From the NCBI GenBank assembly GCA_964493385.1, contig CAZBNW010000001.1, positions 22,267 through 86,266 of the forward strand: a stretch of DNA of 64,000 bases, in the 5' to 3' direction. The notes below the pieces were generated by a model that saw only the letters and a program-made list of their open reading frames with translations, ran no database searches and had not been told where the DNA came from. Both the position numbers and the translations under genes were made by a program. This stretch comes from an uncultured archaeon. Lineage in GTDB: Archaea; Asgardarchaeota; Lokiarchaeia; Sigyniarchaeales; SOKP01. This document shows positions 37,999-54,525 of this stretch, in pieces. How positions within the stretch are numbered: position 1 is the first letter of the stretch; every line of letters begins with the position of its first letter.

Positions 37999-38874
37999 TT
38001 AATCGGAGCGCCTATTGTCCTCTTTTTTTTTTTTTAAGTTAGTTAAATCATCTAAATTATCAATATCAAAAAAGTGATCTTTACTTTCAATTTCAAAAGC
38101 AAAAACTTTCTTTCCATTAACAATCATATGATTTATTGTCTCCCAAACCGTTTTTACTGAAATTTTATCCTTCAATTTCAAGATTTCGTTGATAGAATCA
38201 TAACTTAATGCAAAGATGGGAATAAATTGATTTAAAACATCCTTAGAAGGAATATCACTAAGTTTCACCTGAGAAATTCTTTTTAAAACGATTTCTGAAC
38301 CGATTTTTTCAACTTCAGCATTAGAAATTAATTTAATTCTTTTATGAATTCCTTTAAATGTTTTTAATCCTATATTTCTATAAAAAACAAATGGATGCTC
38401 TTGAATCAACTGATAATTCTTAGAAATTATGAATAAAACTTCTTTCAATATGTTTAAATGAAAGATAGTATCCCCAGGGATTATTATATAGGAGTTATCA
38501 GGATTGAAGAAAGTTTTATTCTTGGTAATAGATAAGAAAGAATATAATGGCCCTAATTTATATTGATTTTCTGTATTAATTATTATCAGTTTATCTTGTA
38601 AGGAGCTATTATTTTTTATTATTGTTGAAATAAAATCACGTATTGTATCGCCTAAATAACCTATTACTATAGCAATCTGCTTTATTTCTAAATTAATTAA
38701 ATTATTAATAATATGATTGAGAATTGAAGTATTATTTAATATTTCGATTTTAATTAATGGTTTTGGTATGTTCTTTGTAATTTCTTTAAGTCTTGTTCCT
38801 TCTCCAGCACATAAAATGACAATAGATAATTTTTCTTTAAAATCATTCTTTAGTAGTGACAATTCTATTCCCAT
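37999..38874 (-). CDS. nucleotidyltransferase (NTP-transferase fold)
   Basis: LSIVILCAGEGTRLKEITKNIPKPLIKI signature. Overlaps the 3' end of map by 32 nt. Confidence 0.6.
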   Translation of the reverse strand: MGIELSLLKNDFKEKLSIVILCAGEGTRLKEITKNIPKPLIKIEILNNTSILNHIINNLINLEIKQIAIVIGYLGDTIRDFISTIIKNNSSLQDKLIIINTENQYKLGPLYSFLSITKNKTFFNPDNSYIIIPGDTIFHLNILKEVLFIISKNYQLIQEHPFVFYRNIGLKTFKGIHKRIKLISNAEVEKIGSEIVLKRISQVKLSDIPSKDVLNQFIPIFALSYDSINEILKLKDKISVKTVWETINHMIVNGKKVFAFEIESKDHFFDIDNLDDLTNLKKKKEDNRRSD

Positions 38875-39760
38875 CCATATCTATTACAATTGTATGCTCC
38901 TCTTGAGCTACGGGTTCTTTAGATTTTTCTACTAGAATATGATATTTATCTAAAATTTTTTTTCTTATGAAAGATTCAATAGTTCTCAGTATATTATTTT
39001 TAGGTATAAGATTATTATTTTCTATCCATCGTAGCGAAAATGGAAGGTGTCGAAAGTTTTTCTCGATTTTATTCATATATCCTAAGTGTTCATATGGCAT
39101 ATTTTTTTTGATTCTTTTTACAAATCGAAATATATAGGCATTTTTCCCATTCTCGACTTTTCCTACACCAGAAGTAGCAAAAGGTTCACAAGCATATGCA
39201 TCTCCTGGTTTTAATACTTGATTGTGCATTTTTTCCTTATAATTTGGAATGAAAGATCCGGCGTGTAAATTATATTGCTTTAATTCATGGCCACCCAAAT
39301 TTATTATAGGGCGTAAACCTCGATTTATAATCTTTTGAGCAATGACTTCACCAAGTTCATATAATTTAGTTCCTGGATTAAATAATTCAATCGCAGCTTC
39401 AAGAGCTTCTTTTGCTGCTTCGATGTAATTTTGGAGCTTAGGATCCTCGTTGATATTAATAGTAAATGCAGAATCTGCAATATATCCGTTAAAATGTGCC
39501 CCAATATCAATTTTTAATAATCCTTTTTCTGGAACTGTAGTCTGATCATCAATTGGAGGGCTATAATGAGCAGCAATTTCATTTAAAGACATATTGATTG
39601 GAAAAGAAAGTCCACATCCGTTCTTTATTATTTCCTCTTCGCATTTATTTGCGATTTCTAAAAATGGTTCTCCTGGTTTAACTAATTTTTTTGCTAATTT
39701 TTTAGCAGCAATAAGTCCACTTCCAGCTTTGATATAATCCTTAATATAACTATTTGTCAT
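38843..39760 (-). CDS. map: methionine aminopeptidase, type 2 (archaeal/eukaryal)
   Basis: Metal ligand context: AAHYSP, DIGAHFNGYIADSAFT, GGHELKQYNLHAG, YACEPFAT and QEEHTIV. Confidence 0.85.
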   Translation of the reverse strand: MTNSYIKDYIKAGSGLIAAKKLAKKLVKPGEPFLEIANKCEEEIIKNGCGLSFPINMSLNEIAAHYSPPIDDQTTVPEKGLLKIDIGAHFNGYIADSAFTININEDPKLQNYIEAAKEALEAAIELFNPGTKLYELGEVIAQKIINRGLRPIINLGGHELKQYNLHAGSFIPNYKEKMHNQVLKPGDAYACEPFATSGVGKVENGKNAYIFRFVKRIKKNMPYEHLGYMNKIEKNFRHLPFSLRWIENNNLIPKNNILRTIESFIRKKILDKYHILVEKSKEPVAQEEHTIVIDMDGNRIVTTKE

Positions 39761-39793
39761 TTTTTTCGAAGATGTTATTATTAATAAATAAAA

Positions 39794-41116
39794 TTAAGGA
39801 ATTAATCGATCGGGTGTTCTTGGATACATAACCGATTCCCGGATATCATCTAATCCACATAAAAGAGTTAACCATCTATCAACACCTAATCCAAATCCTG
39901 CATGTGGCGGCATTCCATAATCAAATGCATTAAGATGTGATGTAAACGCAAGTGAGTTAAGTCCTTTTTCTTCAAGTGCTTTTACTAATTGTTCTTTATT
40001 GTGAACTCTAGTACCTCCTGAAGTCAATTCTAACATTCCTTTTTGCAGATCAAAGGATTCACTGTATTTATGATTTTTTGAGGGCATAATGTAAAAAGGT
40101 TTAATAGACATTGGCCAATGAGTAATATAATAATATTCAGTTAGTTCTTCACCTAATTTCCTATAAGCCTCAGTAGAAATGTCTTCTCCGAATTCAATGT
40201 TCAATCTAAATTTTTTATTAATTAAATCAATGATTTCTTCATACTTATATCTTGGAAAAGGAATGTCTGGTACGATTGTTTTATTTTCCATTTCTAAATA
40301 TTTTAATGCTGATATTTGATTCTCTCTTATATCTTTAATGACAGTATGAACCATTTCCTCCAATATTTTAAGAATATCTTCCATTGTTGAAAATGCCATT
40401 TCTACGTCTAAAGTAAAAATCTCACATAAATGTCTTTTTGTGCGGCTTTTTTCAGCTCTAAAACAATCACTTATTTCAAAAACCTTTTCATATACTCCGC
40501 TCAATTGTTCTTTATATAATTGAGCAGATTGAGTAAGAAATGCTTCTTTTTCAAAGTATATAATAGGAAATAACTCAGTACCTCCTTCTGTTGCAGACCC
40601 TATAATTTTGGGTGTTGTTATCTCAGTAAAATCTCTTTCAAATAAAAATTTCCTAATAGATCTAAGCAATTCTCCTCTAATCTCAAACACAGCTTGATTT
40701 TTAAGGGATCTTAGATCTAAAGCTCTATTATTCAATCTTAGATCTAACTCTGAGATAGTTTCTCCTGTCATATCTATAGGAAGCTTATCAGGTGTAGTAT
40801 TTAATATTTTTATTTCAGTAGGAATAATTTCAATTCCTCCTGGTGCTTCATTGAACGCTTTTACAATTCCCTTTACCATTATGCAATATTGATATCCAAC
40901 TTTTGCTTTTTCAAACACCTCATCAGAAACAACTCCCTTTTTTAAGGTTATTTGGCGTTCTCCATATTTATCTTGAAGAGATATAAATTTTAAACCTCCA
41001 AGATCCCTGTAATTTCGAACCCATCCACCTAAAATGACTTCTTTATTCACTAAATCTGTTGTTACATCTTTCGTGAAATAGATTTTTCTCCAATTATCCA
41101 AATTGTCAAGTGGCAA
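39794..41116 (-). CDS. aspS: aspartyl-tRNA synthetase, archaeal/eukaryal type
   Basis: OB-fold N-domain ([19 protein letters not shown]). Class II motifs [15 protein letters not shown] and [18 protein letters not shown] start. Confidence 0.9.
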
Positions 41117-41177
41117 CTTATAAACTCTTAAAATTTTCTCGAATATATTTTTTAAAATTAAAGTAAAAATAAAATTT

Positions 41178-42686
41178 TTGCCATCTTATCTTATATTTAT
41201 GGTAAATTTGAAATGGAAAGGAAAATTGAATAGAAAAGATATTCTTTCAAAAATATATGAAACTACACCTTTCCATATTCTTGATATTTATCCGTCTATC
41301 AGTATTAACACTAAATCGGAACAAAACTGGCAAAACTTATTGATTTGGGGAGAAAACAAGGCAGTAATGAATTCATTGTTAGAAAAATTCAAAAATAAAA
41401 TCCATCTTATATATATTGATCCTCCGTTTGCTACAGGAGGAGATTTCAATCTTAAGATTCAAATAGGAGAAGTTGGAAAATATGTGGATGAAATTGCCTA
41501 TAGAGATAAGTGGGGACAGGGATTAGACGATTATTTGGACTTTTTACATGAAAGGCTTATTATAATGAAAGAGTTGTTAGCACATAATGGTTCTATATAC
41601 ATACATTTAGATTGGCATATATCTCATTATATAAAAATAATAATGGATGAGATTTTTGGAATTGAAAATTTTAGGAACGAGATAATATGGGCATATCCCG
41701 CCGCTTCAGTTAAAACAAGACGATTTTTTATGAGATCTTACGATACAATTCTTTTCTATTCAAAATCTGATGATTATATTTTTAATGATGATCCTAAAAT
41801 ATACCAAGAATTTTCTGATCGAGTCAAAAATGCATTAAAGAAAGATGATAAAGGTATATATTATTATAGAGGTGGAAGTCATAATGGAAAAAAGTTGTCT
41901 AGGAAAGTATATATAGAAAAGGAAGGAATCTTTCCTAGAGATGTTTGGAATGATATTCCTTATATCAGGGCGAATACTTCAGAATATCAAGGTTTTTCTA
42001 CCCAAAAACCAGAACGTCTTTTAAAAAGAATTATTTTAGCATCAACAAATAAAGGCGATCTTGTAGTGGATTTTTTTTCTGGCTCAGGTACTACCCTAGC
42101 TGTAGCAGAAAAACTTGGAAGACATTGGATTGGATGTGATTCAAATAAACTTGCGATTCATATGACAAGGAAAAGAATTCTTAACTTAAATAAAAGTAAT
42201 GATATTTTAAATTGGAAAAAGATGTATAATAAAGATCCTCAATCTTTCAAAATTTTATGTATTGAAAAGAACGATAAATTAAATTCAATACCCAATGGGT
42301 TTTTGTCTAAGGATATTCAGCATGAAAACGGATTCCAAATTAAAGAAATCCCGGATTTGAACGTAAAAATCCATCAAAATAATAATAAAATTATGGTAGA
42401 ATTACTTGATTACATAATACCCTTTACCCATTTGATATCTGAGAAAGTTAAAGGAAATATAAAATCATTCTCAGATTGGATTGATTATTGGGCTATTGAT
42501 TTTAATTCCCAAAATAAAATTTTTAAAAATATGTGGTTTTCTTACAGAACTCCAAAAATCAGGACATTGACATTAAAATCAGACTCATATCACTATGATA
42601 AGCGAGGAAATTATAATATTTTAATAAAAGTAATTGACATTTTTGGAATTGAATCTATGAAATCATATAAAATTAAAATTATTTAA
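41178..42686 (+). CDS. DNA methyltransferase, beta-class (N6-adenine or N4-cytosine), orphan
   Basis: Motif IV IYIDPPF (nt 41418-41429) precedes motif I VVDFFSGSGTTLAVAEKLGRHWIGCD. There is a C-terminal extension of about 160 aa with unknown function. No adjacent endonuclease. Confidence 0.8.
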   Translation: MPSYLIFMVNLKWKGKLNRKDILSKIYETTPFHILDIYPSISINTKSEQNWQNLLIWGENKAVMNSLLEKFKNKIHLIYIDPPFATGGDFNLKIQIGEVGKYVDEIAYRDKWGQGLDDYLDFLHERLIIMKELLAHNGSIYIHLDWHISHYIKIIMDEIFGIENFRNEIIWAYPAASVKTRRFFMRSYDTILFYSKSDDYIFNDDPKIYQEFSDRVKNALKKDDKGIYYYRGGSHNGKKLSRKVYIEKEGIFPRDVWNDIPYIRANTSEYQGFSTQKPERLLKRIILASTNKGDLVVDFFSGSGTTLAVAEKLGRHWIGCDSNKLAIHMTRKRILNLNKSNDILNWKKMYNKDPQSFKILCIEKNDKLNSIPNGFLSKDIQHENGFQIKEIPDLNVKIHQNNNKIMVELLDYIIPFTHLISEKVKGNIKSFSDWIDYWAIDFNSQNKIFKNMWFSYRTPKIRTLTLKSDSYHYDKRGNYNILIKVIDIFGIESMKSYKIKII

Positions 42687-44064
42687 TGAGTTCTCTAATT
42701 AATATTGTTGCATAACTTCCCTTTTGAAGAGAAAATTCCAATTTAATTTTTTTCTTTTCAGGATTAAGTTCATCATCAGTCAATTCTAACATTTTTAGCG
42801 CAGTGGGTTTAGTTATCATTGCTCTAATAGAACCTTTAAATTCTTGGCTAATAGGGAGTTTATTATTAAATATGTTTTTGTCCATGTTTTCTTGCTTTGC
42901 AATTTCTTCGAATAATAGTTTCATTAATGGAAATTCATCTAAATTTGTATTGATACCAATAATAGGTATTATTAAAACAGCTCGATTTAGGTTTAATGCT
43001 TTCTTCAAATACCTATCATAGGAACCCCCATAAATGTATTTTACTTTTGTTATATTTCCATTAAAGTCATCTAATATACTAATGACATCACCTTTTATAG
43101 GCTTAAATAAAGGAAAGCCTTTCTGCACTCTTATTGAAAGCATCTTATTAAATAAATAAGATTGAAAGGAACTGATTAATAATGTTTTTAAATCAGAGGA
43201 TAAAGTATTAATACTACCTTCATAATCGTCTGGGTGTTCAATTAAATAATGGATCATATTTCTTTCGTATTGTAGACTTTTTGGAAAATTTTCATACGCT
43301 TTCTCAAGATTTCCGGTATTTCTAAATTCTCTCCTAGCCAATTTTGATTCTAGAGACTCAGTTGAATAAGTTGTTGATACAGATTCTTCAAATCCTTTCT
43401 TAAAATTACCTTCAAGAAGACAACGTCCAACAATATGAGAATTAGGTCTATAGTTTCCAAATCTTTGAAGTCCAAAATAGTTAGGAAATCCGTAAGTGTT
43501 TAAAAAATTTAAATATTTCTCTATTTTACTTTTTAGCTTCTTATTATAGATTATATTTCTTAGTATTATTGCAAAATTATTTCCCCAATGGCTTCCTAAT
43601 TTAACAGATTTTTTAGTTGGATATACGTTTCTAATGAAAATGTCTTTTAATTTTATATTCTTTAATTTTTTGATGTAATCTCCTTTTATAGAGATTTTTT
43701 GAGCCGAAATGGAAAATTTATCTTTTAAGCCAGAATAATTGATTGAATTATAAGGAATTTTTAAAACTTTACTAATCTGTCTTAAGGCTTCAAATGTATC
43801 TTTATTAATTTTTATTAAATTAAATGTTGTATATTTATCCTTTAGCTCTTCAGAAAAAGGGTGAGTTTTATAATCTTCTTTAATGTCAATGATCTTTCCA
43901 TTATTATTAATCTCTCTTACAATAAAATCCTTGAATTTTTTCTTATATTCTCCTCCTATTCCCTTAATTTTATGTGTAGCAAAAACTTCAATTCCTACAA
44001 ACTTTTCTACTTCTCTTTCATTATTTTCCCTAAAAGAATAAGTATCCTTTTCTTGTTCAGACAA
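42679..44064 (-). CDS. truD: tRNA pseudouridine synthase TruD/Pus7 family
   Basis: FKDFIVREI, GLKDKFSISAQ (catalytic Asp context) and NYFGLQRFG motifs. Confidence 0.8.
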   Translation of the reverse strand: MSEQEKDTYSFRENNEREVEKFVGIEVFATHKIKGIGGEYKKKFKDFIVREINNNGKIIDIKEDYKTHPFSEELKDKYTTFNLIKINKDTFEALRQISKVLKIPYNSINYSGLKDKFSISAQKISIKGDYIKKLKNIKLKDIFIRNVYPTKKSVKLGSHWGNNFAIILRNIIYNKKLKSKIEKYLNFLNTYGFPNYFGLQRFGNYRPNSHIVGRCLLEGNFKKGFEESVSTTYSTESLESKLARREFRNTGNLEKAYENFPKSLQYERNMIHYLIEHPDDYEGSINTLSSDLKTLLISSFQSYLFNKMLSIRVQKGFPLFKPIKGDVISILDDFNGNITKVKYIYGGSYDRYLKKALNLNRAVLIIPIIGINTNLDEFPLMKLLFEEIAKQENMDKNIFNNKLPISQEFKGSIRAMITKPTALKMLELTDDELNPEKKKIKLEFSLQKGSYATILIRELIK

Positions 44065-44087
44065 TTTTTTAGCCTATAGTTTTACTA

Positions 44088-44444
44088 TTATAATAATTTT
44101 AAATCTCCAGTTATTTTATCAATCTCTGTTGATAAGGTAGGACCAATACCAACTGCAGTTGTCGTACCAGGCGGTAATTGAGTTAAGCCGGCATCATTGA
44201 CAATGAAATATGGAAGTTTATTAGATTCAAGTTTAAGTACAATTTCTTTTAATTGTTCTATACTTTGTATTTTAAGGACAACCTTTTTCTGGCCTGAATT
44301 TTTCCAATTCTTCCAAATATTCTTATTCTGGACACGTACTAAATCTGAAGCTGAAACACTCGCATGAGAGGATTGAGCACATTTTTTGCCAGTGCTCATT
44401 TTTAAATCTGTTCTTATTAAAATGACTTGTTTATATTCGTCCAC
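44088..44444 (-). CDS. pth2: peptidyl-tRNA hydrolase, archaeal Pth2
   Basis: [25 protein letters not shown] and [25 protein letters not shown] start. Confidence 0.85.
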
Positions 44445-44491
44445 GGTAAATCTATTAAATATTAAGAAATTAGCTAATTAAATATTACTAA

Positions 44492-45007
44492 TTATTGAAA
44501 TTCTACTCTAGTAATATTTCCTGTTAATTCATATATCAGTTCTTCAAGTTCTTCTTTAGTGAATAAAATTTTATCCTTATCCTCTTCCCAAATAACAGCC
44601 CTGAATTGAATATCACCAGTAGCTAAAAAGATTTCATTTAATGAAACTAATTTTGCACTTGGGGCAATTAATGCTTCTACTACCGGACGTGGTTTATTTG
44701 TTTTTTCAATTAATATTAATTCATCAATTTCATATGTTTCTTTAATCCATGTTTCTAATTCTGGAGTTATTTTCAATTTATCCTTTTTCCCTACCACTAA
44801 TATTACTACATCTTCATAATCAATCGCTTTGTGAAATGAAACATCCTTAAGAAAAGTAAATTGTTCTTCTTTTTCCTCCAATTGAATAAGATCTTTTGCT
44901 AAATCTATCTCAAATTTAGTTACTTCTCCAGCATCAAGTCTAGCTTGACAATTGGTACATAAAAAGCCAGAATTTATACATGTCTTATCTGCTGGAAGAA
45001 CTTTCAT
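44492..45007 (-). CDS. zinc-ribbon protein, possible RNA-binding (NusA/KH-like C-terminal segment)
   Basis: N-terminal C..x..CTNC. The C-terminal EALIAPSAKLVSLNEI loosely recalls the NusA ALxPA segment. Weak call. Confidence 0.3.
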   Translation of the reverse strand: MKVLPADKTCINSGFLCTNCQARLDAGEVTKFEIDLAKDLIQLEEKEEQFTFLKDVSFHKAIDYEDVVILVVGKKDKLKITPELETWIKETYEIDELILIEKTNKPRPVVEALIAPSAKLVSLNEIFLATGDIQFRAVIWEEDKDKILFTKEELEELIYELTGNITRVEFQ

Positions 45008-45241
45008 TAGGTTTAAACCAGATTAAACATATCAAGTTTTGTATAATTCTATTATATCGTATTGATATACCGTATTGTAATTGATATCTATTAAAAATGG
45101 TTAATTAATTTTTTTATAAAGATTCTTAAATTTTATATTTAAAAGAGATTATATTCTAAAATTTAGAACAATCTTTAAATAAAAAGATAAAAAATCAAAA
45201 AATATTTCTTATTTTAAATTTAGAAACTTTAATCATAAACC

Positions 45242-46153
45242 CTATAATAGAATTTCATTTATCTCTTGCTCTATCATTAATATCTCTTTAATTGATTGTT
45301 TAAACTCATCTTTAGGAACTTTACTCCTGTTGAGTAATGTTTTTGTAAGGGTTTTATATTTTGATATAAGATGAGACTCTGCAAAATTTTCAAGTTTTAA
45401 ACAAAATGAATAAAGATATGAATAAGTTTCTGCATATTTAGAATATTCTAAAGACTCTTTAACCCTATTCAAATAATATTTCAATCTTAACTTTCGATCT
45501 TCAATCTCATCTTTAAGGGATTTAGCTTCCGTTTGATACACGATAAATTTCTCATCATCTCTAAGTTTCTCAGAGATCTCAATTAATTTCCTTGAAATTT
45601 CATACTTTTTAATAAAATTATCTTCAGTTAAATAACTAACTCTGAGTTCTTCTCTTTCTTTTAATAAATCTTCTCTTAACTGCTCAGATAATGTGCCTTT
45701 TTGGTCCCATATCGATTTTAAAATTGTACTCTGGTCAGCAGTTAGAGATGATCCTGCTATTAGTTTTTTATCTGAAAGAATTAGTTGTATAATTTTTAAA
45801 TCAAACATTTCTAGTCTTTCTGGTTTACGATCCCAATTAACAAATAAATCTTGATGACCAAGTACAATTGTATTTATTTCAGGGATTAATTTTTGGACTT
45901 CTTTTATATCGTCCTTATCGGTAATAATGACTAGGTCTGATAATATTTCAGGTATTCGTGTAATTAATACAAAATATTCTCCCAATTCAATTGTATTTAA
46001 CGATTCTGTACTGCTTTCAGTAAGTTCTGATACAAAAGTCTGCAACGCTGAAAAAAAAGAATCAAACATTTCTAATTTTTCATCACTTTGAAAATTCTTA
46101 TTGTACATAAGATCTTTTGAACTAGTCTGAAAAATATATAATGCTTGAATCAT
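45242..46153 (-). CDS. hypothetical protein: longin/roadblock-like N-domain (speculative) plus coiled coil
   Basis: The N-terminus ALYIFQTSSKDLMYNKNF...MFDSFFSALQTFVSEL parallels 13612-14361. The C-terminal half is helical. Confidence 0.4.
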   Translation of the reverse strand: MIQALYIFQTSSKDLMYNKNFQSDEKLEMFDSFFSALQTFVSELTESSTESLNTIELGEYFVLITRIPEILSDLVIITDKDDIKEVQKLIPEINTIVLGHQDLFVNWDRKPERLEMFDLKIIQLILSDKKLIAGSSLTADQSTILKSIWDQKGTLSEQLREDLLKEREELRVSYLTEDNFIKKYEISRKLIEISEKLRDDEKFIVYQTEAKSLKDEIEDRKLRLKYYLNRVKESLEYSKYAETYSYLYSFCLKLENFAESHLISKYKTLTKTLLNRSKVPKDEFKQSIKEILMIEQEINEILL

Positions 46154-46388
46154 CGTTAAATTATCTTGATTTTATAATATTAAAATATTTGTTTTTTTTC
46201 TAAGTTTCTTATCATCTACTTTATGATTAAAATAAAAGTAAAATAATTTATAATTAACTTTTTCAAAAAACTAAGGTTTAAAGTATATTATCTTCTTTTC
46301 TGTAGTTTTATTTTCATATGACTTTGGAGTAAATCATTCTCCGATCTATTGAGCGGAGTAAATTAATTGCGGTTAATATAAGTAGATT

Positions 46389-46583
46389 TCATAATTCTAT
46401 AATATCGCAACTAATATTTCTTAATAATCTCTCTGCTGTTGCCGGATCTGTTTTATAAGTATAAAGAATTTTCTTAGTTCTTAATTTTAATTTCACAATT
46501 TCTTTTATACGCTTAACTCGACAATGAATTGCATATTCAGAGATCTCTAAAAACTTATTTTCATCAAATATTTCTCTAGGCAC
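46389..46583 (-). CDS. rpl38e: ribosomal protein eL38 (L38e)
   Basis: MPREI..F.., then VKLKLRTKKILYTYKTDPATAERLLRNIS, parallels eukaryotic L38 (MPRKIEEIKDFL...[29 protein letters not shown]). 64 aa. Confidence 0.7.
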   Translation of the reverse strand: MPREIFDENKFLEISEYAIHCRVKRIKEIVKLKLRTKKILYTYKTDPATAERLLRNISCDIIEL

Positions 46584-46770
46584 ATTAACTCAACTAATCT
46601 TACAGAACGTAAATGATGAGTAGATCTATTAATTATAGAATTTTAATTTTATCATATTTTACAATATTCTAAACAAAAATTTTATTTTGAATCACATGTT
46701 TTAGAAATTATTCTTATTAGTATAATATCTTAGTTTAACTTCAAATAAATAAAGTATTGCGTGAGTAAAA

Positions 46771-46935
46771 TTGAGTCCGATCGATGATCCTGTCAAACGG
46801 AGAATTGCTAGATATCATTTATTAGAAAAAACGGTTTGTAGAAGATGTGGTGCTCTTAATCCACTCAGAGCTAAAAAATGTAGAAGATGCCATGGGAAAG
46901 ACCTGCGACTAAAGAGAAGAGAACTTACTAAATAG
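46771..46935 (+). CDS. rpl40e: ribosomal protein eL40 (L40e)
   Basis: Not in the ORF track (54 aa, TTG start). Translation SPIDDPVKRRIARYHLLEKTVCRRCGALNPLRAKKCRRCHGKDLRLKRRELTK shows the L40e CxxC...CxxC zinc ribbon. The in-frame stop tga at 46762-46764 lies two codons upstream of the TTG. Confidence 0.75.
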   Translation: MSPIDDPVKRRIARYHLLEKTVCRRCGALNPLRAKKCRRCHGKDLRLKRRELTK

Positions 46936-47147
46936 ATTAATACAGTCTTTTTTTATGATGAAATCCTTACTTTCTTAATTGATTTAGGTCTTGCCTCCTA
47001 CGTTTACAAGTTCATGAAGTAATGGAAAGGCAAGATTACTATGAATAATACGTGTACTATAGTCATGTTAATACCAAGCTTGTAAATTAGAATAATCTCC
47101 TCATACAATGAATAACATTTAAATATGGACTTAATAATAATATCTTT

Positions 47148-47154
47148 GAGGTGA
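47148..47154 (+). promoter_or_regulatory. strong Shine-Dalgarno-like GAGGTGA upstream of the ceramidase-like gene
   Basis: GAGGTGAcgaaataATG: 7 nt complementary to the conserved 16S 3' end, 7 nt before the ATG at 47162. Confidence 0.45.
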
Positions 47155-47161
47155 CGAAATA

Positions 47162-48481
47162 ATGGTTAAAACTAAATTTAAAGTATCAATGGTCTTGCTC
47201 GTTGTGGGTCTAATAATCGCTGTTTTTCCTGTGGGTGCGATGGCTGCTAGTGAATCTAAACGGAAATTAATGGTGGGAGCATATGCATTGCCAATAACGC
47301 CAATAACGGATGAGTTTGGAGTCCCCAGAAATCCGGACGGGTCACAAGTTTTCCTAGCGGGATTTGGTCGACCGGCGTCCAGACCTGCTATAGCCGTTCA
47401 CGATGATGTCTATGTAAGGTGTTTGATAATAAATTATGATGGAACATCGATCGTCTTCGTGGCACTTGACCTTATCGGCTATGGTATTGATCAAGTTGAT
47501 GCAGTGAGAGAGGAAGTACAGGACGAGTATGGGTTAGAGGCTGATAATGTCATCATAGCCTGTACGCACACTCACTCGGGACCCGACACCTTAGGACTCT
47601 GGACAGGCACCATTCCAGGAGTTAACTGGCCGTATATGGAATATGTAGGGGCCCAGATCGTAGAGTGTATAGGTCAGGCATATCAAAATATGGAAAAGGC
47701 TAGAATACGATTTGCCTCTACGAGCGTTCCAGGACTGATGAAAAACTCCCGTGACCCGGGAAGAGTTTATCCGGATTTGGAAGTAATGAAGGTCGAGGAC
47801 AGGAGAGGCGATACCATTGCCACGATGATCAACTACGCGGGTCACCCGGAGGTCCTTGTAACAGAGAATCTAGAAATAACCTCTGACTACGTGGGTTACC
47901 TCCGCGATAAAGTCGAAGAGAAGCTGGGAGGAGTTGCAATCTTCTTCAACGGGGCTCTAGGAGGGATGATAACTCCAGATGTGGAGGAACGTACGTTCGT
48001 GAAGGCAAAAGAGATTGGATACATACTCGCAGATGCAACCGTTGGGGCTCTGGCTGGTGCGAAAAAAGCTCTCCCGAAAATGGCTTTCAATTTGGAAAAA
48101 CAGAACTTTACAGTTCCCTTGGAAAACGAACTATTTTACTTCGGCATATTGGGAGGTGTACTTTCTAGACCCGCACCCTGGTACGAGTTCGAAATATATC
48201 CCGATCTGGGTAATATAAAGACGGAGGTCAATGTAATCACTATTGGGAAGGCCCAGATGATCACTATGCCCGGAGAAGTCCTACCAAGCATAGGATACCG
48301 CCTGAGGGAAGCTATGACGGGAAAGTACAAGTTCCAGATAGGACTGGGTAATGACGAGTTGGGTTATATAATCCCCGCGGATGAATGGGATGACACACAA
48401 TACGAGGAATCAATGTCCATAGGCGTGCAAACCGGTATTGCTATGGAAACAATTCTCATGGAAATGTTGGAGGGAACCTGA
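47162..48481 (+). CDS. secreted neutral/alkaline ceramidase-like hydrolase (N-terminal domain family)
   Basis: Signal peptide MVKTKFKVSMVLLVVGLIIAVFPVGAMAAS. IIACTHTHSGPDT (nt 47567-47584) matches the neutral ceramidase Zn-binding HxHSGP block. GC is far above the surroundings. Confidence 0.6.
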   Translation: MVKTKFKVSMVLLVVGLIIAVFPVGAMAASESKRKLMVGAYALPITPITDEFGVPRNPDGSQVFLAGFGRPASRPAIAVHDDVYVRCLIINYDGTSIVFVALDLIGYGIDQVDAVREEVQDEYGLEADNVIIACTHTHSGPDTLGLWTGTIPGVNWPYMEYVGAQIVECIGQAYQNMEKARIRFASTSVPGLMKNSRDPGRVYPDLEVMKVEDRRGDTIATMINYAGHPEVLVTENLEITSDYVGYLRDKVEEKLGGVAIFFNGALGGMITPDVEERTFVKAKEIGYILADATVGALAGAKKALPKMAFNLEKQNFTVPLENELFYFGILGGVLSRPAPWYEFEIYPDLGNIKTEVNVITIGKAQMITMPGEVLPSIGYRLREAMTGKYKFQIGLGNDELGYIIPADEWDDTQYEESMSIGVQTGIAMETILMEMLEGT

Positions 48482-48704
48482 GTCGTTCAAGCAAAGTGGA
48501 TTTCCAAGGAAAAATCTTAATTAATATTTTTTTTATCTTTTTTAGTTATATATGAAACATTTCTTAATTGAATAATCGCTTTATTTAAGCGTATCATAGA
48601 AAAAGTTTCAAAATTCGTAAACTTTTTTAATTTTATGACTTAGAGATCTATATAAATAAAAGAAATATCAAAAAAATTTTTTAATAATTAAATTAACGAT
48701 AAAT

Positions 48705-48709
48705 GGTGA
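48705..48709 (+). promoter_or_regulatory. Shine-Dalgarno-like GGTGA upstream of the thermosome gene
   Basis: aaatGGTGAaaaattaaaATG. A TATA-like tatataaata lies at 48649-48658, further upstream. Confidence 0.35.
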
Positions 48710-48718
48710 AAAATTAAA

Positions 48719-50404
48719 ATGGCACAATTAGGCGGAACACCCATATTAATAATGAAAGAAGGAACTGAAAGACAACGTGGTAGAGATGCAATGCAGAATA
48801 ACATCGCTGCGGCAATTGTTATCGCAGAAGCAGTGAGGACTTCACTTGGACCTAGAGGTATGGATAAAATGCTCGTAGACCAGTTTGGTGATGTAGTCAT
48901 TACGAACGACGGAGCTACCATACTAAAGGAAATTGATGTACAACATCCTGCTGCCAAAATGATGGTTGAAGTTGCTAAAACTCAAGACTCAGAAGTTGGT
49001 GATGGAACAACAACGTCAGTTGTTCTCGCTGGAGAACTTCTGAAACGCGCCAAAAAACTTTTAGAACAAAAGATTCATCCAACTGTTATTACTGAAGGCT
49101 TCCGAAAAGCAGCAGAAAAAGGTATTGAAATTCTAGAGAATATATCAGTAAAAAGTGGAATTGATGATGAAGAAGGATTAAGGAACTCTGCTATGACTTG
49201 CATGTCCAGTAAGATTGTTTCTGAATCAAAAGAGAAGTTAGCTCAGATTTGTATGGATGCGATTAAAGCTATTGCCGAACAATCTGATGATGAAAACTGG
49301 ATTGCTGACATTGAAAAAGTCCAGATTCAGAAGAAAGAGGGAGATTCAATCGATGATACAGGACTAATTAAGGGTATTATCTTAGATAAAGAAGTTGTAA
49401 GCCCTGGTATGCCAAAGAGTGTTAATGACGCAAAAATCTTACTTTTACAAAGCGCTATAGAGATTGAAAAAACTGAGTTTGATACTAAACTTCAAATCAC
49501 TAGCCCAGAACAAATCCAGCAATTTTTAGATGAAGAAGAGCATATGCTAAGAAGTATGGTTGAAAAGATCGAAAAATCTGGAGCTAATGTTGTTATTTGT
49601 CAGAAAGGGATTGATGATATGGCTCAGCATTTTCTTTCTAAGGCAGGAGTTATGGCAATAAGAAGAGTTAAGAAATCTGACATTGAAAAACTCTCAAAAG
49701 CCACTGGTGGTACAATTTTTACTAACCTTGATGATATTACCTCCGATAAACTTGGATGGGCGGGATTAGTAGAAGAACGCAAAATTATGAATGATTCATG
49801 GATTTTCATTGAAAAATGTAAAGATCCTAAATCAGTTGTAATCCTTATAAGGGGAGGCACTGAAATGATTGTTGATGAAGTCGAAAGAGCTATTCACGAT
49901 GCACTTTGTGTAGTTAGAGATGTTGTAGAAGATCAGAAAATTGTCGGCGGTGGTGGCGCTCCTGAGATTGAAACTGCAATTCAATTAAGAAAATACGCAT
50001 CCACATTAGGCGGACGCGAGCAACTTGCTGTTGAAATATTCGCTGATTCACTCGATATAATCCCAAAAACCCTAGCTGAAAATGCAGGTTTAGATCAAAT
50101 TGACTCTCTAATGAAATTAAGATCATCTCATCAGCAAGGAAATAAATTTGCTGGCCAAGATTTAGATTCTGATAAAATAATCGATGATATGATGAAAGTA
50201 GGCGTTGTTGAACCGACTATCGTGGTAGTTCAAGCAATTAAAAGCTCTACCGAAGCTACTTCGATGATTTTACGCATCGACGATGTTATCGCCTCTGCAA
50301 AAACTGCTGGCCCGCCAATGCCTCCTGGTGGTCCTCCAGGGATGGGAGGTATGGGAGGTCCTCCAGGAATGGGAGGAATGGGAATGCCTCCGGGGATGTA
50401 TTAA
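48719..50404 (+). CDS. ths: thermosome subunit (group II chaperonin)
   Basis: [35 protein letters not shown] and a C-terminal GGM/PPG-rich tail. Confidence 0.95.
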
Positions 50405-50819: not shown

Positions 50820-52571
50820 ATGGCTAAAAAAAGAAAAGAAGATTCTCCTTTTGGTTATATTTATCGAGCTACTAATATTCATAATGGGAAAAATTACATA
50901 GGAAAGACTGAAAAAACCATAGAAAAAAGATGGGGTAAACATCTAAGCGATGCTAGGTTATTAGAGCGAGAGCGAGAAGCTAATCCTAATAAAAAAGTAT
51001 TGGGTACTCATTTTGATAATGCTCTAGTTAAGTATGGTCCTGATGCATTTATTGTTAAGCAGGAAGATATTGCTTATAGTAAAGAAGAATTGAATGAGTT
51101 AGAAAGATATTATGTTAAAGAATATGATTCGATGAATCCAGATAAAGGCTATAATATGACCGAGGGTGGTGATGGAGGTAGACAAAGTCCAGAAGTAATA
51201 GAAAAGATGGCTGAAATAAGTAGAGCAAGAGCTAAAGATCCAGAATGGAGAGAAAAAATGACTAAAATTAATCGAGAGATTACGCAAAGACCAGAATATC
51301 GGGAGAAGATGAGTAAAATCAGTAAAGAAAGACAACAAGATCCAGAATATCGGGAAAAAATGAGTAATACTATTACAGAAAAATACCAAAAGGATGCTGA
51401 GTATTACAATAAGCAAGCTAATGAAAGGAGGGAAAGAGCAAAGGATCCAATATGGAGAGAAAAGATGGCTGAAATAAATAGAGCAAGAGCTAAAGATCCA
51501 GAATGGAGAGAAAAAATGACTAAAATTAATCGAGAGATTACCCAAAGACCAGGATATAGCGAGAAAATGAGTAATTCTATTACAGAAAAATGGAAGGATC
51601 CGGAATATCAGCAAAAACAAATAGAGTCCCATAGACCATACAAAAAAGAGATAACTGATAAGCGACAATTCCTCGAAGATATTCAAAATATGCAGAAAAA
51701 GGATATTGATGAGAAATATAATATGGATGGGAAGACGGTAAATAGAAGAATAGAAGAAATGTTGGGTGATCGTGGTGTTAAGAACTACACAGAAGCAAAA
51801 AAATATCTAGAAGATAAAAAAATTGACAATGTTTTGAAAGATATCGAGGACCAAAATGTTGAGAAGCAAGAAGATAGGCAGATATCAGAGAGCAAGCCTG
51901 AAGATTCAGAAAAAGAGCCAAGAGAGGATCATGAAAAAGAATTAAAAGATAAGGAATCAGCAGAAGAGAAAGCTGAAGAGCCATCGAAAGAGATAACAGA
52001 TAAGCCTACTGAAGAAGAAAGAGAGGAAAAAAAGGATGAATTATCAGAGGAACAGATCGAGGAGTCTCACGATCAAGCTGCTATCGATAATCAATCTAGT
52101 GAATCTTCTGAAGAGATGAGTAAAGAGCACAAATTTGAAACGAGTGGCCCTCCAAGAGAGGGTTCAGTACAGGATTTAATAGCAGAGAAGATTAGAGAGA
52201 ATGAGGAAGAAAAAGCTAAGAGAAATGCTGAAAGAGGGAGGGGATTTATTGATTATTATGATATTCCGATATACATTAACGATTTAATTAAAAGTGATTG
52301 GGATCATCTTGGACACACCGATACCAATAGTGAAAAAGATTATGACGGTCTTGATAAATCTTCAGACAACATCTCATTTATATCCAGAGATCATGAAGGA
52401 ATTGATGAGACTTCTAGCGAGGGAGATAAGGATTTTCAAGGTTTAGATAAGGAATCTAAGGAGGAAAGAGAAGATTTTGCTGGAATTGACGATTATTCAA
52501 GTGAAGGGGGTAAGGATTATGACCATATCGATGAGGAATATAGTGGTGATGAACATGGAGGAGAAGCATAG
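50820..52571 (+). CDS. GIY-YIG nuclease (I-TevI-like core) with NUMOD3-like repeat array and long acidic C-terminal tail
   Basis: GYIYR (from 50853), NYIGKT (50895-50909), EKRWGKH and YNMTEGG follow the GIY-YIG order. About 10 copies of DPE(W/Y)REKMS-type 17-aa repeats follow. The C-terminal ~250 aa are E/D/K-rich and end in five D(Y/F/H)xG(L/I)D motifs. Confidence 0.8.
   Translation: MAKKRKEDSPFGYIYRATNIHNGKNYIGKTEKTIEKRWGKHLSDARLLEREREANPNKKVLGTHFDNALVKYGPDAFIVKQEDIAYSKEELNELERYYVKEYDSMNPDKGYNMTEGGDGGRQSPEVIEKMAEISRARAKDPEWREKMTKINREITQRPEYREKMSKISKERQQDPEYREKMSNTITEKYQKDAEYYNKQANERRERAKDPIWREKMAEINRARAKDPEWREKMTKINREITQRPGYSEKMSNSITEKWKDPEYQQKQIESHRPYKKEITDKRQFLEDIQNMQKKDIDEKYNMDGKTVNRRIEEMLGDRGVKNYTEAKKYLEDKKIDNVLKDIEDQNVEKQEDRQISESKPEDSEKEPREDHEKELKDKESAEEKAEEPSKEITDKPTEEEREEKKDELSEEQIEESHDQAAIDNQSSESSEEMSKEHKFETSGPPREGSVQDLIAEKIRENEEEKAKRNAERGRGFIDYYDIPIYINDLIKSDWDHLGHTDTNSEKDYDGLDKSSDNISFISRDHEGIDETSSEGDKDFQGLDKESKEEREDFAGIDDYSSEGGKDYDHIDEEYSGDEHGGEA
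51201..51574 (+). repeat. intragenic direct repeat: two 116-bp copies (51201-51316, 51459-51574) offset by 258 bp
   Basis: Hand alignment: the first 83 bp differ at 1 position and the remaining 33 bp at 5. The offset is a multiple of 3, so this is an 86-codon duplication within the repeat array. Confidence 0.85.
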
Positions 52572-54525
52572 CATTAGCGCCGAAGATGAGATATTATTTT
52601 GGCAAACTTGTATTAAAATAACGCAAGCTCCAGAACCATTTAAACCTCAAGAAATTCAGGAGACTGCTGTCCCTTTTTATCAGAAGCATGAAGATATTAG
52701 ATCCTTTCTATATGATCCGTTTGGGCACAATCCTCCAGGAGTTTACGGTCTTAGATTAACCGCAAATGATAATATTGAAGTCGCTTTTTTTTCTAAAGCA
52801 ATCTCAAAAATGGGACCAATTAAATCAGGTCATGCGTGGCTTTCTAATTTGAGGTATAAATTCATAGGATTAGATGGTATTGTTGAAGCGAAACCAATAA
52901 TAAAAGATGGCCAAAAAATATTGAAAGAGAGTAAATTATTCGAAATTAGCCTTCCAATGGGGTATATTAAGAACAAAATCAATATAATTGAAAGATTCAT
53001 TAGTGCTTTTTATCATAAAGCAAACCACACTACGGAGCTAATTATTTTATGGCAGAGAGAACCTCGTTCGGAGAAATCTCAGGAGCAATCTAATTTATTT
53101 AATATACGAGTTTTTATAAAATGCGATTTGAACGATTCCAATTTAGACGAGAGATTAAAACTCGAAGGCATAATACAATTCTTATCGATGGATATTGAAA
53201 ATCAAATGGGGGATCGTGCGAGAGTTGTTAATCCTTCTGATGTTTCAAATCTAAAAATACTGGAAGGGAGCGTTTTTAATGACAGATGTGAATCATTAAG
53301 AAATTTTGTTCAAGAAGATGTTAATTTTGATTTTCCAGAGAATCTTCCATTACCAAGGCTTCCAATTTTAAAAAATGAAAATGTGAGATATATCGATATC
53401 CACGAGGATTTTAAGAAAACAGCGATAACAGTAGGAAATCATATCAAGGATGGTGTGATAACTAACCATGAAACATTTGTACCAATTAACAAACTTCCTC
53501 AAGATTTAGCTATTTTCGGGAAATCTGGCAGTGGAAAAACATATTTTCTCGCTCGATTCATACAAGAGCTTACTGAAAAATCAGAAGAAGTTGGGATTTT
53601 AGTATTAAATATCGCAAAAGAATCTCAAGAGATTTTCTATCATAATTTTAAAAAAGTAAAGTATTCTGATGAGGATTTTTATATACCTTATTTTATTAAA
53701 ACTGAAAAAGAAACTCTAAAAAAACGTTTGCAGGAGATTGCTACTTATATTTGCGCGTCATTAGGACTAAAAAATGTTTTTGAAAAAATTATCTACCGTA
53801 CTGAAATAGGTTTCTTAGAATTAAAAGGAAAACTACCCGAATTCTTTATAAGTTTACTAAGAGGTGTAGAGACTTATATCAGAAATAATCCATATGGTCC
53901 AGAAGAACAGGCTAATTTATTACAAGTTTTTAGAAATAGAATGAACGTTTTTGATGAAGATAAAGTCCAAAATGTTTTAAAAATAACTGAAAGTCTGCCA
54001 AAATGGGTTGATGAGTGGCTAAATGGTAAAAATATCTTTCTTGATTTATCCATGAGCAGCAAATTTGTAAAAATGCTGATTGTAAATGCGATATTTCAGC
54101 TTGTAAGAACTGTTACAAAAGATAGTGAAGCTGAGGAGTTAAAATACCTCATCGTTATTGATGAAGCTCATGCTATTTTAGAAAAACCTATTACTACGAA
54201 CAGCGATGACGCTGACTTTATCATGAAAGAACAAATGGCAAAAATATTTTCTGAATTATTAAAAGAATATCGAAGCCGAGGGGTTGGATTTGTCATTGCA
54301 GATCAATCTCCTGACAATTTATTTAAGGATGTTGCCTCTCAGCCAAGCATAAAAGTAATTTTTAGGCAGGACTTTCCTAATAATTCGCTCTTTTCAGAAG
54401 ATCCTTTTGAACGACAAATCTTAACACAATTACCGAACAGACTCGCCTTAGTAATCAATGGTGCTACAGGAGAGAAATATCTAATTAAGACATTGGATTA
54501 TAATGAAATTAACTTCTTCAATTAA
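52519..54525 (+). CDS. HerA/FtsK-superfamily (DUF87-like) ATPase with uncharacterised ~330-aa N-terminal region
   Basis: Walker A FGKSGSGKTYF (53518-53541), Walker B LIVIDEAH (54154-54171) and RSRGVGFVIADQSPDNL (HerA-like R-finger/Q motif). Candidate starts at 52519, 52531, 52549 and 52555 all overlap the upstream gene's end. Confidence 0.7.
   Translation: MTISMRNIVVMNMEEKHSISAEDEILFWQTCIKITQAPEPFKPQEIQETAVPFYQKHEDIRSFLYDPFGHNPPGVYGLRLTANDNIEVAFFSKAISKMGPIKSGHAWLSNLRYKFIGLDGIVEAKPIIKDGQKILKESKLFEISLPMGYIKNKINIIERFISAFYHKANHTTELIILWQREPRSEKSQEQSNLFNIRVFIKCDLNDSNLDERLKLEGIIQFLSMDIENQMGDRARVVNPSDVSNLKILEGSVFNDRCESLRNFVQEDVNFDFPENLPLPRLPILKNENVRYIDIHEDFKKTAITVGNHIKDGVITNHETFVPINKLPQDLAIFGKSGSGKTYFLARFIQELTEKSEEVGILVLNIAKESQEIFYHNFKKVKYSDEDFYIPYFIKTEKETLKKRLQEIATYICASLGLKNVFEKIIYRTEIGFLELKGKLPEFFISLLRGVETYIRNNPYGPEEQANLLQVFRNRMNVFDEDKVQNVLKITESLPKWVDEWLNGKNIFLDLSMSSKFVKMLIVNAIFQLVRTVTKDSEAEELKYLIVIDEAHAILEKPITTNSDDADFIMKEQMAKIFSELLKEYRSRGVGFVIADQSPDNLFKDVASQPSIKVIFRQDFPNNSLFSEDPFERQILTQLPNRLALVINGATGEKYLIKTLDYNEINFFN

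Follow-up and report, generated by a model that had tools for sequence, protein, structure and literature searches.

A GC-rich hydrolase gene of the neutral-ceramidase superfamily between the L40e and thermosome genes of a Lokiarchaeial genome: a probable old insertion with incomplete amelioration

Gene content and base composition of the locus

The gene described here lies in a 64,000-nucleotide stretch of DNA from an uncultured Lokiarchaeial genome (hereafter the window), between the genes for ribosomal protein L40e and the thermosome. A preliminary description of this DNA had named these two neighbors, and both were recovered by Pfam. The parts of the locus are as follows.

46771..46935, + strand: ribosomal protein L40e gene (Pfam PF01020, E=7e-6), left border of the insertion site
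46960..47161, + strand: upstream region of the hydrolase gene, with a TATA-like TTTAAATA at 47118-47125 and the Shine-Dalgarno sequence GAGGTGA at 47148-47154
47162..48481, + strand: hydrolase gene, 439 aa, catalytic domain only (neutral-ceramidase superfamily), product predicted to be secreted or membrane-anchored (composition, PF04734, profile search, AF2/Foldseek)
47162..47245, + strand: codons for residues 1-28, up to GAMA/AS, a putative signal peptide or membrane anchor at the N-terminus (residue layout, AF2, conservation)
47561..47584, + strand: CTHTHSGP block with H136 and H138 (alignment to 4WGK; both His invariant in 26 homologues)
48482..48610, + strand: 3' end of the insert, with T-tracts at 48527-48545 (no alignment to empty-site spacers)
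48611..48718, + strand: native promoter and leader block of the thermosome gene, marking the right border of the insertion site
48719..50404, + strand: native thermosome (group II chaperonin) gene, GC3 0.26 (Pfam PF00118, E=4e-186)
47591..47845, 47896..48090 and 48136..48330, - strand: three antisense ORFs, by-products of GC-rich third positions and not genes

The GC content of the hydrolase gene was 46.8%, compared to 28.7% for the whole window, and no 1320-nt sliding window had a higher value (mean 28.7%, sd 3.6%). By codon position, GC was 0.555, 0.382 and 0.468 in the gene and 0.544, 0.365 and 0.263 in the adjacent thermosome gene. The GC3 of 0.469 was 8.7 SD above that of the 54 other non-overlapping ORFs of at least 120 aa in the window (mean 0.202, sd 0.030, max 0.269), and isoleucine was encoded by ATT, ATC and ATA in the proportions 0.19, 0.28 and 0.53 rather than the 0.52, 0.13 and 0.35 of the host. 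The GC-rich gene in an AT-rich core and its shift toward G/C-ending codons, both pointed out in the preliminary description, were thus borne out. The shift began just after the ATG and ended about 20 nt past the stop codon, with AT-rich spacers on both sides, so it was limited to a single gene as had been proposed. Because fully ameliorated orthologues still have a GC content of 38-39%, about 10 of the 18 excess GC points can be assigned to amino-acid composition and about 8 to synonymous sites.

Two local causes of the high GC3 were considered and rejected. Expression-linked codon bias was not supported since the thermosome and ribosomal-protein genes reach a GC3 of only 0.16-0.26. An overlapping gene on the antisense strand was rejected because the antisense ORFs are short (64-84 aa), interrupted and matched by equivalents in the thermosome gene, and their apparent conservation follows that of the sense strand. 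Long antisense ORFs had been thought to occur only in the GC-rich gene; antisense ORFs of 70-89 aa are found in the thermosome gene as well.

The borders of the insert were drawn by comparison with related genomes, in all eight of which L40e is 83-100% identical. The block from 46997 onward could be aligned among gene carriers (the window, L097 and L005), and nothing in the empty-site spacers of L101 and L099 corresponded to it; the left end is placed approximately, somewhere within 46945-46997. On the right, the block at 48611..48718 was nearly identical in the same gene carriers and in the same empty-site genomes. The region at 46960..47161 belongs to the gene itself and is its putative promoter. 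The ribosome-binding site in the preliminary description was located at 47148-47154, and a similar GGTGA before the thermosome gene marks it as a native-type signal. Archaeal RNA polymerase uses oligo-T for termination, and for this reason the T-tracts at 48527-48545 are likely the gene's terminator. Mobility genes were absent from the locus, no tRNA was found across the whole window, and a search for direct repeats flanking the insert gave only short AT-rich chance repeats.

The predicted product

The product matched Pfam PF04734 with 58.8 bits (gathering cutoff 32.1, E=5e-16) over residues 63-257, which correspond to profile positions 17-232 of 509. In the PDB, only 4WGK and 2ZWS were matched by a profile search. 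Consistent with this, an AF2 model (pLDDT 89, pTM 0.87) recovered 2ZWS, 4WGK and 2ZXC from the PDB with Foldseek at E ~1e-27 and a query TM of 0.72-0.73, and the next match after these ceramidases had an E of 7e-4 and a TM of 0.13. The target TM was only 0.49-0.52 because the C-terminal domain of the target is left unmatched.

The CTHTHSGP block reported in the preliminary description is present at residues 134-141. In a HMMER alignment to 4WGK, residues H136, H138, H228, E372, Y402 and Y414 aligned to human H194, H196, H303, E540, Y579 and Y591, and all six were invariant in 26 homologues. The zinc ligands of human neutral ceramidase are reportedly H194, H303, E540 and Y579, as described by Airola and colleagues in 2015. 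The almost invariant R197 aligned one residue away from human R257, and the position of human Ser354 is occupied by threonine (T271) in the archaeal protein (human residue numbering according to PMC6952831).

The N-terminus, MVKTKFKVSMVLLVVGLIIAVFPVGAMA/AS, has the n-h-c layout of a signal peptide: a lysine-rich n-region, an 18-residue hydrophobic core (mean Kyte-Doolittle hydropathy of 2.58 for residues 9-26) and an AxA-like c-region. In the AF2 model, residues 2-21 formed a helix followed by a disordered linker (residues 22-32), and the pattern was kept in the orthologue consensus. No other convincing transmembrane segment was present in the mature part. These features agree with the signal peptide proposed earlier and suggest that the protein is exported, with the N-terminus serving as a putative signal peptide that may be cleaved or remain as an uncleaved anchor.

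The archaeal protein shares the fold of the catalytic domain (TM 0.73) with the neutral, non-lysosomal ceramidases (EC 3.5.1.23) human ASAH2 (4WGK) and Pseudomonas aeruginosa CDase (2ZWS/2ZXC), together with the blocks HTHSGP, HPE, PGE and NDELGY...YEE and, by prediction, an extracytoplasmic location conferred by an N-terminal signal or anchor. However, it is 439 aa long, compared to ~650-780 aa for the neutral ceramidases, only 17-20% identical to them, and lacks their C-terminal Ig-like domain; the protein ends directly behind the catalytic domain, at residue 439, and no second Pfam domain was detected. Its host makes ether lipids. Against the NCBIfam equivalog NF041649 it scored 26.8 bits (cutoff 1200), so that orthology to characterised neutral ceramidases was not indicated. 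The earlier reading of a ceramidase-like hydrolase therefore stands for the superfamily (PF04734) and fails for the ceramidase equivalog: judged from sequence, the label ceramidase holds at the superfamily level only. The product is probably a zinc-dependent amidohydrolase consisting of a neutral-ceramidase catalytic domain without the Ig-like domain. The substrate is probably an N-acyl amide; candidates are exogenous ceramides and further N-acylated lipids derived from sediment necromass.

Closer relatives were found in a short-form branch of the superfamily, which at E<=1e-3 comprised 10,258 cluster representatives (clustered at 50% identity); species-representative genomes held more than 583 loci. 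These neutral/alkaline ceramidase N-terminal domain-containing proteins, from Chloroflexota, Armatimonadota, Poribacteria, Bathyarchaeia, Hadarchaeota and others, are ~380-520 aa long, have the catalytic domain only and are 32-46% identical to the archaeal protein. In contrast to other short forms, the Loki copies make up a tight clade of their own (69-91% identity). No characterised member of the branch was found, and literature searches turned up no earlier account of a ceramidase-like gene in Asgard archaea or of the amelioration of such a gene.

Distribution and origin of the gene

All close homologues (69-91% aa identity) were in the same Loki-type lineage. A metagenome scan for the gene gave five loci. 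Positional orthologues occupied the slot between L40e and thermosome, in a collinear neighborhood, in five relatives (L003, L005, L097, L083 and L093), and a single collinear 12.4-kb alignment passed through the gene. The flanking proteins of genomes with a positional orthologue differed by 16-21%. At this conserved locus, four others (L098, L099, L100 and L101) had no copy. The gap between L40e and thermosome was ~190-220 nt in L099 and L101. The gene was also present in other genomic contexts (L088, L090, L096, L004 and L084/85). The spacer itself was variable: L100 carried VapBC there, L003 an additional beta-helix gene and L098 an ORF of 100 aa, and in L101 it was empty. It emerges as an insertion hot spot.

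The distance-based tree of the flanks, with W for the window, was ((W,L097),(L003,(L005,L101))) with L098-L100 as outgroup (bootstrap 0.99-1.0). Empty sites in the three outgroup Loki genomes and in the nested L101 indicate one gain in the ancestor of the subclade and one later loss in the L101 lineage.

In an NJ tree of the protein, the Loki clade was sister to a clade on a mid-GC contig, within further non-Loki clades; the tree was built with distance methods, and several of the intermediate clades carry no taxonomy. The sister proteins are 58-66% identical to the Loki copies and have a 560-575-aa form with a C-terminal extension. The contig is uniformly ~44% GC and looks Bathyarchaeia-like, to judge from MAG labels and one flanking protein, FtsX, which is 87-88% identical to proteins labelled Bathyarchaeota. 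The GC3 of the sister copy (0.44) is below that of the inferred ancestor of the Loki copies (0.52), suggesting that the true donor is outside the sample.

A horizontal origin of the gene is supported by the empty outgroup sites, by the inferred ancestral GC3 of ~0.52 against a host equilibrium of 0.16 and by the mid-GC sister clade. The direction of transfer and the donor are inferred. The best explanation, and in our judgment a probable one, is an old insertion into the ancestor of the Loki-type subclade followed by vertical inheritance and incomplete amelioration. The common ancestor of this Loki-type subclade (Promethearchaeia) would have gained a segment of ~1.65 kb, made up of the ORF, its own promoter and SD region upstream and a T-rich stretch at the 3' end, in the gap between the L40e gene and the promoter of the thermosome gene. 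In the donor, synonymous-site GC would have been at least ~0.5, and the nearest surviving relatives of the gene would be those in mid-GC, Bathyarchaeia-like genomes. Thereafter the gene would have passed on vertically at this locus and been lost once, in the L101 lineage, while its third positions drifted to the host equilibrium (GC3 ~0.16-0.2) at the neutral rate of the neighboring genes. The window lineage, with the slowest synonymous rate, would have retained the most donor composition (GC3 0.47).

Amelioration and alternative explanations

The atypical third-position GC of acquired genes decays toward the host equilibrium, a process known as amelioration after Lawrence and Ochman. The GC3 of the orthologues ranged from 0.25 to 0.48 across lineages with flanks near 0.2; at the same locus, it was 0.47 in the window and 0.36, 0.28 and 0.27 in relatives. 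GC at 4-fold sites of the flanks was 0.17-0.22 in all eight genomes. A non-stationary ML model fitted one host equilibrium (theta = 0.164, 0.136-0.183) and a crown GC3 of 0.52 (0.47-0.56). The synonymous path length of the gene was 0.30 for the window and 0.71 for L097, matching the flank-derived rates of 0.20-0.38 and 0.49-0.63, respectively. The window lineage had the shortest synonymous branch among those sampled, in the gene and likewise in the flanks, which explains why its copy kept the most donor composition. Because decay to a single equilibrium fits the data and the window lineage has the shortest synonymous branch, the GC3 pattern is ordinary, incomplete amelioration. As in classical cases, GC3 decays, the outgroup site is empty and descendants are at different stages of decay; unlike those cases, the whole series lies at one syntenic Asgard locus, lineage differences are explained by lineage-specific synonymous rates, and neither mobility genes nor a tRNA target are present.

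Nei-Gojobori dS was low among the GC3-rich copies (0.17-0.7, compared to 1.2-2.9), which was first read as synonymous constraint or recent spread. This reading was rejected. Excess identity at 4-fold sites, which is corrected for composition, was equal in gene and flanks (0.42 and 0.40 for the window and L097, 0.20 and 0.27 for the window and L003, 0.22 and 0.21 for the window and L005), indicating that the NG86 contrast is an artefact of base composition.

Exchange within the Loki lineage, in which a less-ameliorated allele entered the window lineage, or moved among lineages, by homologous recombination through the conserved L40e and thermosome flanks, is an unlikely alternative to vertical inheritance. 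The variable contents of the spacer and the presence of the gene in other contexts would favor it, as would the disagreement between the trees, since the window and L097 are sisters in the flank tree and not in the amino-acid NJ tree of the gene (both distance-based only). The basal branches of the gene tree are star-like, however, which makes the incongruence weak. Also in favor of exchange, in the first 77 codons the window and L093 had a 4-fold excess identity of 0.77, compared to 0.43 in the flanks, over 41 sites only. On the other side, the gene and the flanks gave the same synonymous identity between the window and L097, and the 12.4-kb alignment was collinear throughout. GC3 profiles along the gene were smooth and correlated between copies, and a search of these profiles for mosaic structure or recombination tracts revealed no obvious mosaics.

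A combined reading, also unlikely, would make the Ig-domain-less enzyme a genuine extracellular ceramidase or N-acyl-lipid amidase, captured by a Lokiarchaeia clade from Bathyarchaeia-like neighbors to feed on sphingolipids and further N-acylated lipids in sediment necromass, with GC-rich codons actively maintained in the window lineage and not simply residual. Maintenance considered alone, whether through selection acting on synonymous sites or through GC-biased gene conversion at an accessory locus that recombines, is likewise unlikely. Parsimony on the window terminal branch gave balanced GC>AT and AT>GC changes (13:12 and 11:12), compared to a neutral expectation of ~78% GC>AT and to 78-83% on the branches of L083, L097, L003 and L088, and the fitted foreground equilibrium was nominally higher (0.26 vs 0.16). 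However, parsimony over-counts AT>GC changes under AT-biased parallel change, and the likelihood model did not support maintained GC3: likelihood-ratio tests for a separate equilibrium were not significant on the window branch (p=0.34), in the clade of the window group (p=0.20) or on the GC-rich tips (p=0.88). A GC3 of ~0.43-0.46 is already expected from the slow synonymous rate of the window lineage, which its flanks show independently; in addition, synonymous turnover of the gene equals that of the flanks, and 4-fold usage is nearly uniform, unlike a codon-preference pattern.

A recent transfer into the window genome alone from a foreign high-GC donor, as proposed in the preliminary description, is very improbable and in its strict form is already refuted by the syntenic orthologues. 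The 8.7-SD outlier confined to a single ORF and codon usage unlike that of the host were what suggested it. Against it, the positional orthologues in five relatives show flank-like divergence, the nearest non-Loki homologue is only 58-66% identical, and mobility genes, tRNAs and flanking repeats are lacking. Moreover, the copies nearest to that of the window (79-91% identity) come from its own lineage and are likewise GC3-rich within AT-rich Loki flanks, an outcome that the preliminary description itself had named as refuting and that here speaks against a recent, genome-specific event. Thus a horizontal origin and the foreignness of a single gene were upheld by the empty sites, the ancestral GC3 and the sister clade, but the syntenic orthologues and the flank-like 4-fold divergence argue against a recent date. 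An assembly chimera joining a gene of a higher-GC organism into an AT-rich contig has nothing in its favor beyond the compositional jump and is extremely improbable, because two independent assemblies from different samples (L001 and L002) are 99.9% identical and gap-free over both junctions; the arrangement also recurs in relatives, including the closed chromosomes CP070805 and CP070831, and the gene's upstream region is AT-rich and conserved among carriers.

The findings pose no challenge to current understanding: they describe ordinary horizontal transfer that is not recent. A sharp GC spike over one gene in an AT-rich Asgard genome does not necessarily mark recent transfer, and here an old insertion under a slow synonymous clock is the probable cause. 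The locus is an unusually clean natural series of amelioration: the site is shared, its empty state has been mapped, the ancestral composition is inferred, and at least 10 descendants stand at different stages. Such a series could help to calibrate relative rates among uncultured Lokiarchaeia. Within the neutral-ceramidase superfamily, the branch with the catalytic domain only, to which the product belongs, is large and uncharacterised. If a ceramidase was indeed captured, it would be a trait for scavenging lipids in the archaea most closely related to eukaryotes.

Composition and borders of the gene

The ORF at 47162-48481 (+) had been singled out by the preliminary description as a probable recent horizontal transfer, and the compositional anomaly was found where it had been placed. 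The gene has 46.8% GC compared to 28.7% for the window and is the maximum of all 1320-nt sliding windows (sd 3.6%), a real discontinuity. GC by codon position was 0.555/0.382/0.468, and 0.544/0.365/0.263 in the adjacent thermosome gene. Its GC at third codon positions (GC3) lies 8.7 SD from the mean of the remaining non-overlapping ORFs of ≥120 aa (n=54; 0.202 ± 0.030, maximum 0.269). The shift begins just 3' of the ATG and ends ~20 nt beyond the stop, with AT-rich spacers on both sides. Because GC is still 38-39% in orthologues whose GC3 is no longer raised, ~10 of the 18 surplus points are attributed to amino-acid composition and ~8 to synonymous sites. The ribosome-binding site, the CTHTHSGP block (residues 134-141) and the neighbours L40e and thermosome were all present as described, and L38e was confirmed as well; antisense ORFs, said to occur only in this gene, are carried by the thermosome gene too.

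In an alignment of L40e-thermosome spacers, the segment at ~46.96-48.61 kb occurred only in gene-bearing genomes, and the thermosome promoter block was nearly identical in filled and empty sites:

46771-46935, L40e gene
47118-47125, conserved TATA-like box
47148-47154, SD motif (GAGGTGA)
47162-48481 (+), ceramidase-like ORF, 439 aa
48527-48545, T-tracts
48611-48718, thermosome promoter block
48719-50404, thermosome gene

No tRNA, integrase or meaningful flanking repeat was found around the insert.

The slot in related genomes and the age of the transfer

An assembly chimera is very unlikely, since other samples yielded two independent assemblies with 99.9% identity and no gaps over both junctions. 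All homologues with at least 69% identity were in Loki-type (Promethearchaeota/Lokiarchaeia) MAGs or AT-rich contigs; the next tier was 58-66% identical. In the conserved order TruD-PTH2-171aa-303aa-L38e-L40e-gene-thermosome, the gene occupies the same slot in L003 and L097 (closed chromosomes CP070831 and CP070805), in L005, and in L083 and L093, both short contigs. Window and L097 align in one 12.4-kb block (81% identity) that spans the gene. Gene dN relative to L003 and L005 (0.18-0.20) matches that of the MTase and TruD genes nearby. Excess identity at 4-fold sites, a statistic corrected for base composition, was the same in gene and flanks, and the gene therefore co-diverged with its neighbours. 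Nei-Gojobori dS had given the GC3-rich copies an unusual synonymous similarity, which was rejected on the corrected values.

Excess identity at 4-fold sites (pair; gene; flanks)
window-L097; 0.42; 0.40
window-L003; 0.20; 0.27
window-L005; 0.22; 0.21

Four further genomes (L098-L101), retrieved via the Loki-specific 303-aa neighbour protein, share the conserved neighbourhood, and all four lack the gene in the L40e-thermosome spacer.

Contents of the L40e-thermosome spacer
window (46936-48718); ceramidase-like gene
L003 (8702-9646); extra secreted beta-helix (NosD-like) gene, in addition to the ceramidase-like gene
L100 (6569-7197); VapBC toxin-antitoxin pair
L098 (6763-7065); 100-aa ORF
L099 and L101; empty (L40e and thermosome genes ~190-220 nt apart)

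The spacer is an insertion hot spot of this Loki lineage, and the thermosome promoter block hardly varies among these genomes. A tree of 2,729 flanking amino-acid positions (distance-based, like all trees here) gave ((window, L097), (L003, (L005, L101))), with L098, L099 and L100 outside (bootstrap 0.99-1.0). In the simplest history, the inner clade's ancestor gained the gene once and L101 later lost it. The gene is NEVERTHELESS of foreign origin, as composition and the empty sites in relatives indicate, but orthologues in the same slot and co-divergence with the flanks show that the transfer was neither recent nor genome-specific.

Within the Loki lineage the gene may to some extent have moved laterally or been relocated: it occurs in other contexts (L088, L090, L096, L004 and L084/85), and its star-like amino-acid tree did not recover window and L097 as a pair.

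Even between MAGs assigned to Hod-, Thor-, Heimdall-, Hermod- and Odinarchaeota, copies of the 303-aa protein keep 70-89% identity. One MAG batch (tags ACFF.../ACFE...; P0250-P0361; loci L004 and L005) bears discordant phylum labels, including Promethearchaeota, yet has common synteny. Labels of that batch are unreliable, and synteny was used rather than organism names because of this inconsistency. The 303-aa and 171-aa proteins (45242-46153 and 44492-45007, both - strand) are conserved and lineage-specific, had no Pfam matches, and are in tight synteny with PTH2, TruD and L38e in 8/8 genomes; the 171-aa one carries a CxxC...CxxC motif in its N-terminal part. The 3' end of the thermosome gene (50327-50380) has tandem 27-nt repeats encoding a GGPPGMGGM tail, typical of group II chaperonins. 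Beyond it (50820-54525; GC slightly raised at 0.33-0.39, strong AT skew) come two overlapping genes: that for a 583-aa protein with a GIY-YIG nuclease domain runs into the start of the one for a 682-aa HerA/DUF87-like ATPase. The nuclease-domain protein has an internally repeated, Lys/Glu-rich region (51200-51359 and 51458-51617 are 87% identical, with '...PEWREKMTKINREITQRP...' repeats). Equivalent pairs lie 3' of the thermosome gene in L099 and L101, and the pair may form a conserved module, of either defence or mobile type.

The encoded hydrolase and its sister forms

PF04734 (neutral/alkaline ceramidases, N-terminal catalytic domain) was the only Pfam match, with E=5e-16 over profile positions 17-232 of 509. 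In the PDB, a profile of 26 homologues hit no entries but human 4WGK and Pseudomonas 2ZWS, both neutral ceramidases. Human residues were numbered along the profile/4WGK alignment from the construct start at 99 (PMC6952831). H136, H138, H228, E372, Y402 and Y414, which pair with human H194, H196, H303, E540, Y579 and Y591, were invariant across the alignment (n=26); R197 and T271 probably correspond to R257 and S354. The AlphaFold model (pLDDT 89, pTM 0.87) matched the ceramidase catalytic domain only (TM 0.73, E ~1e-27). At the N-terminus, a lysine-rich n-region is followed by an 18-residue hydrophobic core and a GAMA|AS motif, a pattern kept in orthologues. Unlike characterised neutral ceramidases, the protein ends after the catalytic domain, without the Ig-like C-terminal domain, and scores 26.8 against the NCBIfam neutral-ceramidase equivalog (cutoff 1200). 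The proposed superfamily thus stands but not a ceramidase proper, and for these reasons the product is a predicted exported zinc amidohydrolase rather than a demonstrated ceramidase. By analogy with neutral ceramidases, whose mechanism is expected to be common to it, it should hydrolyse an N-acyl amide in a zinc-activated reaction; N-acylated lipids of exogenous origin would be plausible candidate substrates in an ether-lipid archaeal host. Its short-form branch is very large and uncharacterised, with 10,258 representatives of 50%-identity clusters (E<=1e-3) and >583 loci in species-representative genomes, in Chloroflexota, Armatimonadota, Poribacteria, Bathyarchaeia, Hadarchaeota and other groups.

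The sister clade of the Loki copies (P0027-P0032) consists of 560-575-aa proteins that are extended at the C-terminus. One of them is encoded on contig L094, which is uniformly 44% GC (GC3 of its genes 0.39-0.49, of this copy 0.44) and whose FtsX neighbour is 87-88% identical to proteins of several MAGs labelled Bathyarchaeota or Bathyarchaeum. Ile codon usage (ATT/ATC/ATA) of the window gene (0.19/0.28/0.53) is near that of the L094 copy (0.22/0.31/0.47), unlike the host (0.52/0.13/0.35). Composition and empty sites suggest transfer into the Loki lineage, the true donor being unsampled. The sister form on this Bathyarchaeia-like contig (789-2516) has two short insertions and a ~130-aa extension rich in beta-type sequence, which may stand in for the Ig-like domain missing from the Loki form.

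Amelioration across Loki genomes

GC3 of the gene forms a continuum across AT-rich Loki genomes, while the flanks are ~0.2 throughout.

GC3 of the gene
L092; 0.48
window; 0.47
L085; 0.46
L084; 0.45
L083, L091; 0.43
L090; 0.42
L097, L096; 0.36
L004; 0.33
L005; 0.28
L003; 0.27
L088; 0.25

A non-stationary two-state (A/T vs G/C) likelihood model of 408 synonymous third positions in 12 copies fitted one shared equilibrium to every Loki branch (theta = 0.164, bootstrap 0.136-0.183), equal to the 4-fold GC of the flanks (0.17-0.22), and put GC3 of the ancestor at 0.52 (0.47-0.56). Giving the window branch (p=0.34), its clade (p=0.20) or all GC-rich tips (p=0.88) an equilibrium of their own was not supported. 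Balanced parsimony counts on the window terminal branch (13 GC>AT vs 12 AT>GC; ~80% GC>AT on sibling branches) are a weak hint of GC maintenance, weak because AT>GC is overestimated by parsimony where AT-biased changes occur in parallel. Tip differences in the model lie in branch lengths: the crown-to-tip path measured 0.30 (window), 0.71 (L097) and 1.6-2.3 (L003, L005 and L088). Since independent relative rates from flanking genes (mu*t) agree (~0.20-0.38 for the window lineage, 0.49-0.63 for L097), the window genome simply has the slowest synonymous clock among those sampled, which probably explains why its copy is still GC-rich.

Over 37999-50404 (compared with L097, L003, L005 and L101), the window lineage is ~two-fold slower at 4-fold sites than its sister L097, with nearly equal amino-acid distances to outgroups, which together imply a higher genome-wide dN/dS in the window lineage.

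We found no prior description in the literature of an Asgard ceramidase-like gene or its amelioration. In evolutionary terms, the gene is a textbook case of a horizontally acquired gene in the course of amelioration, distinguished chiefly in that the full amelioration series can be read at one locus.
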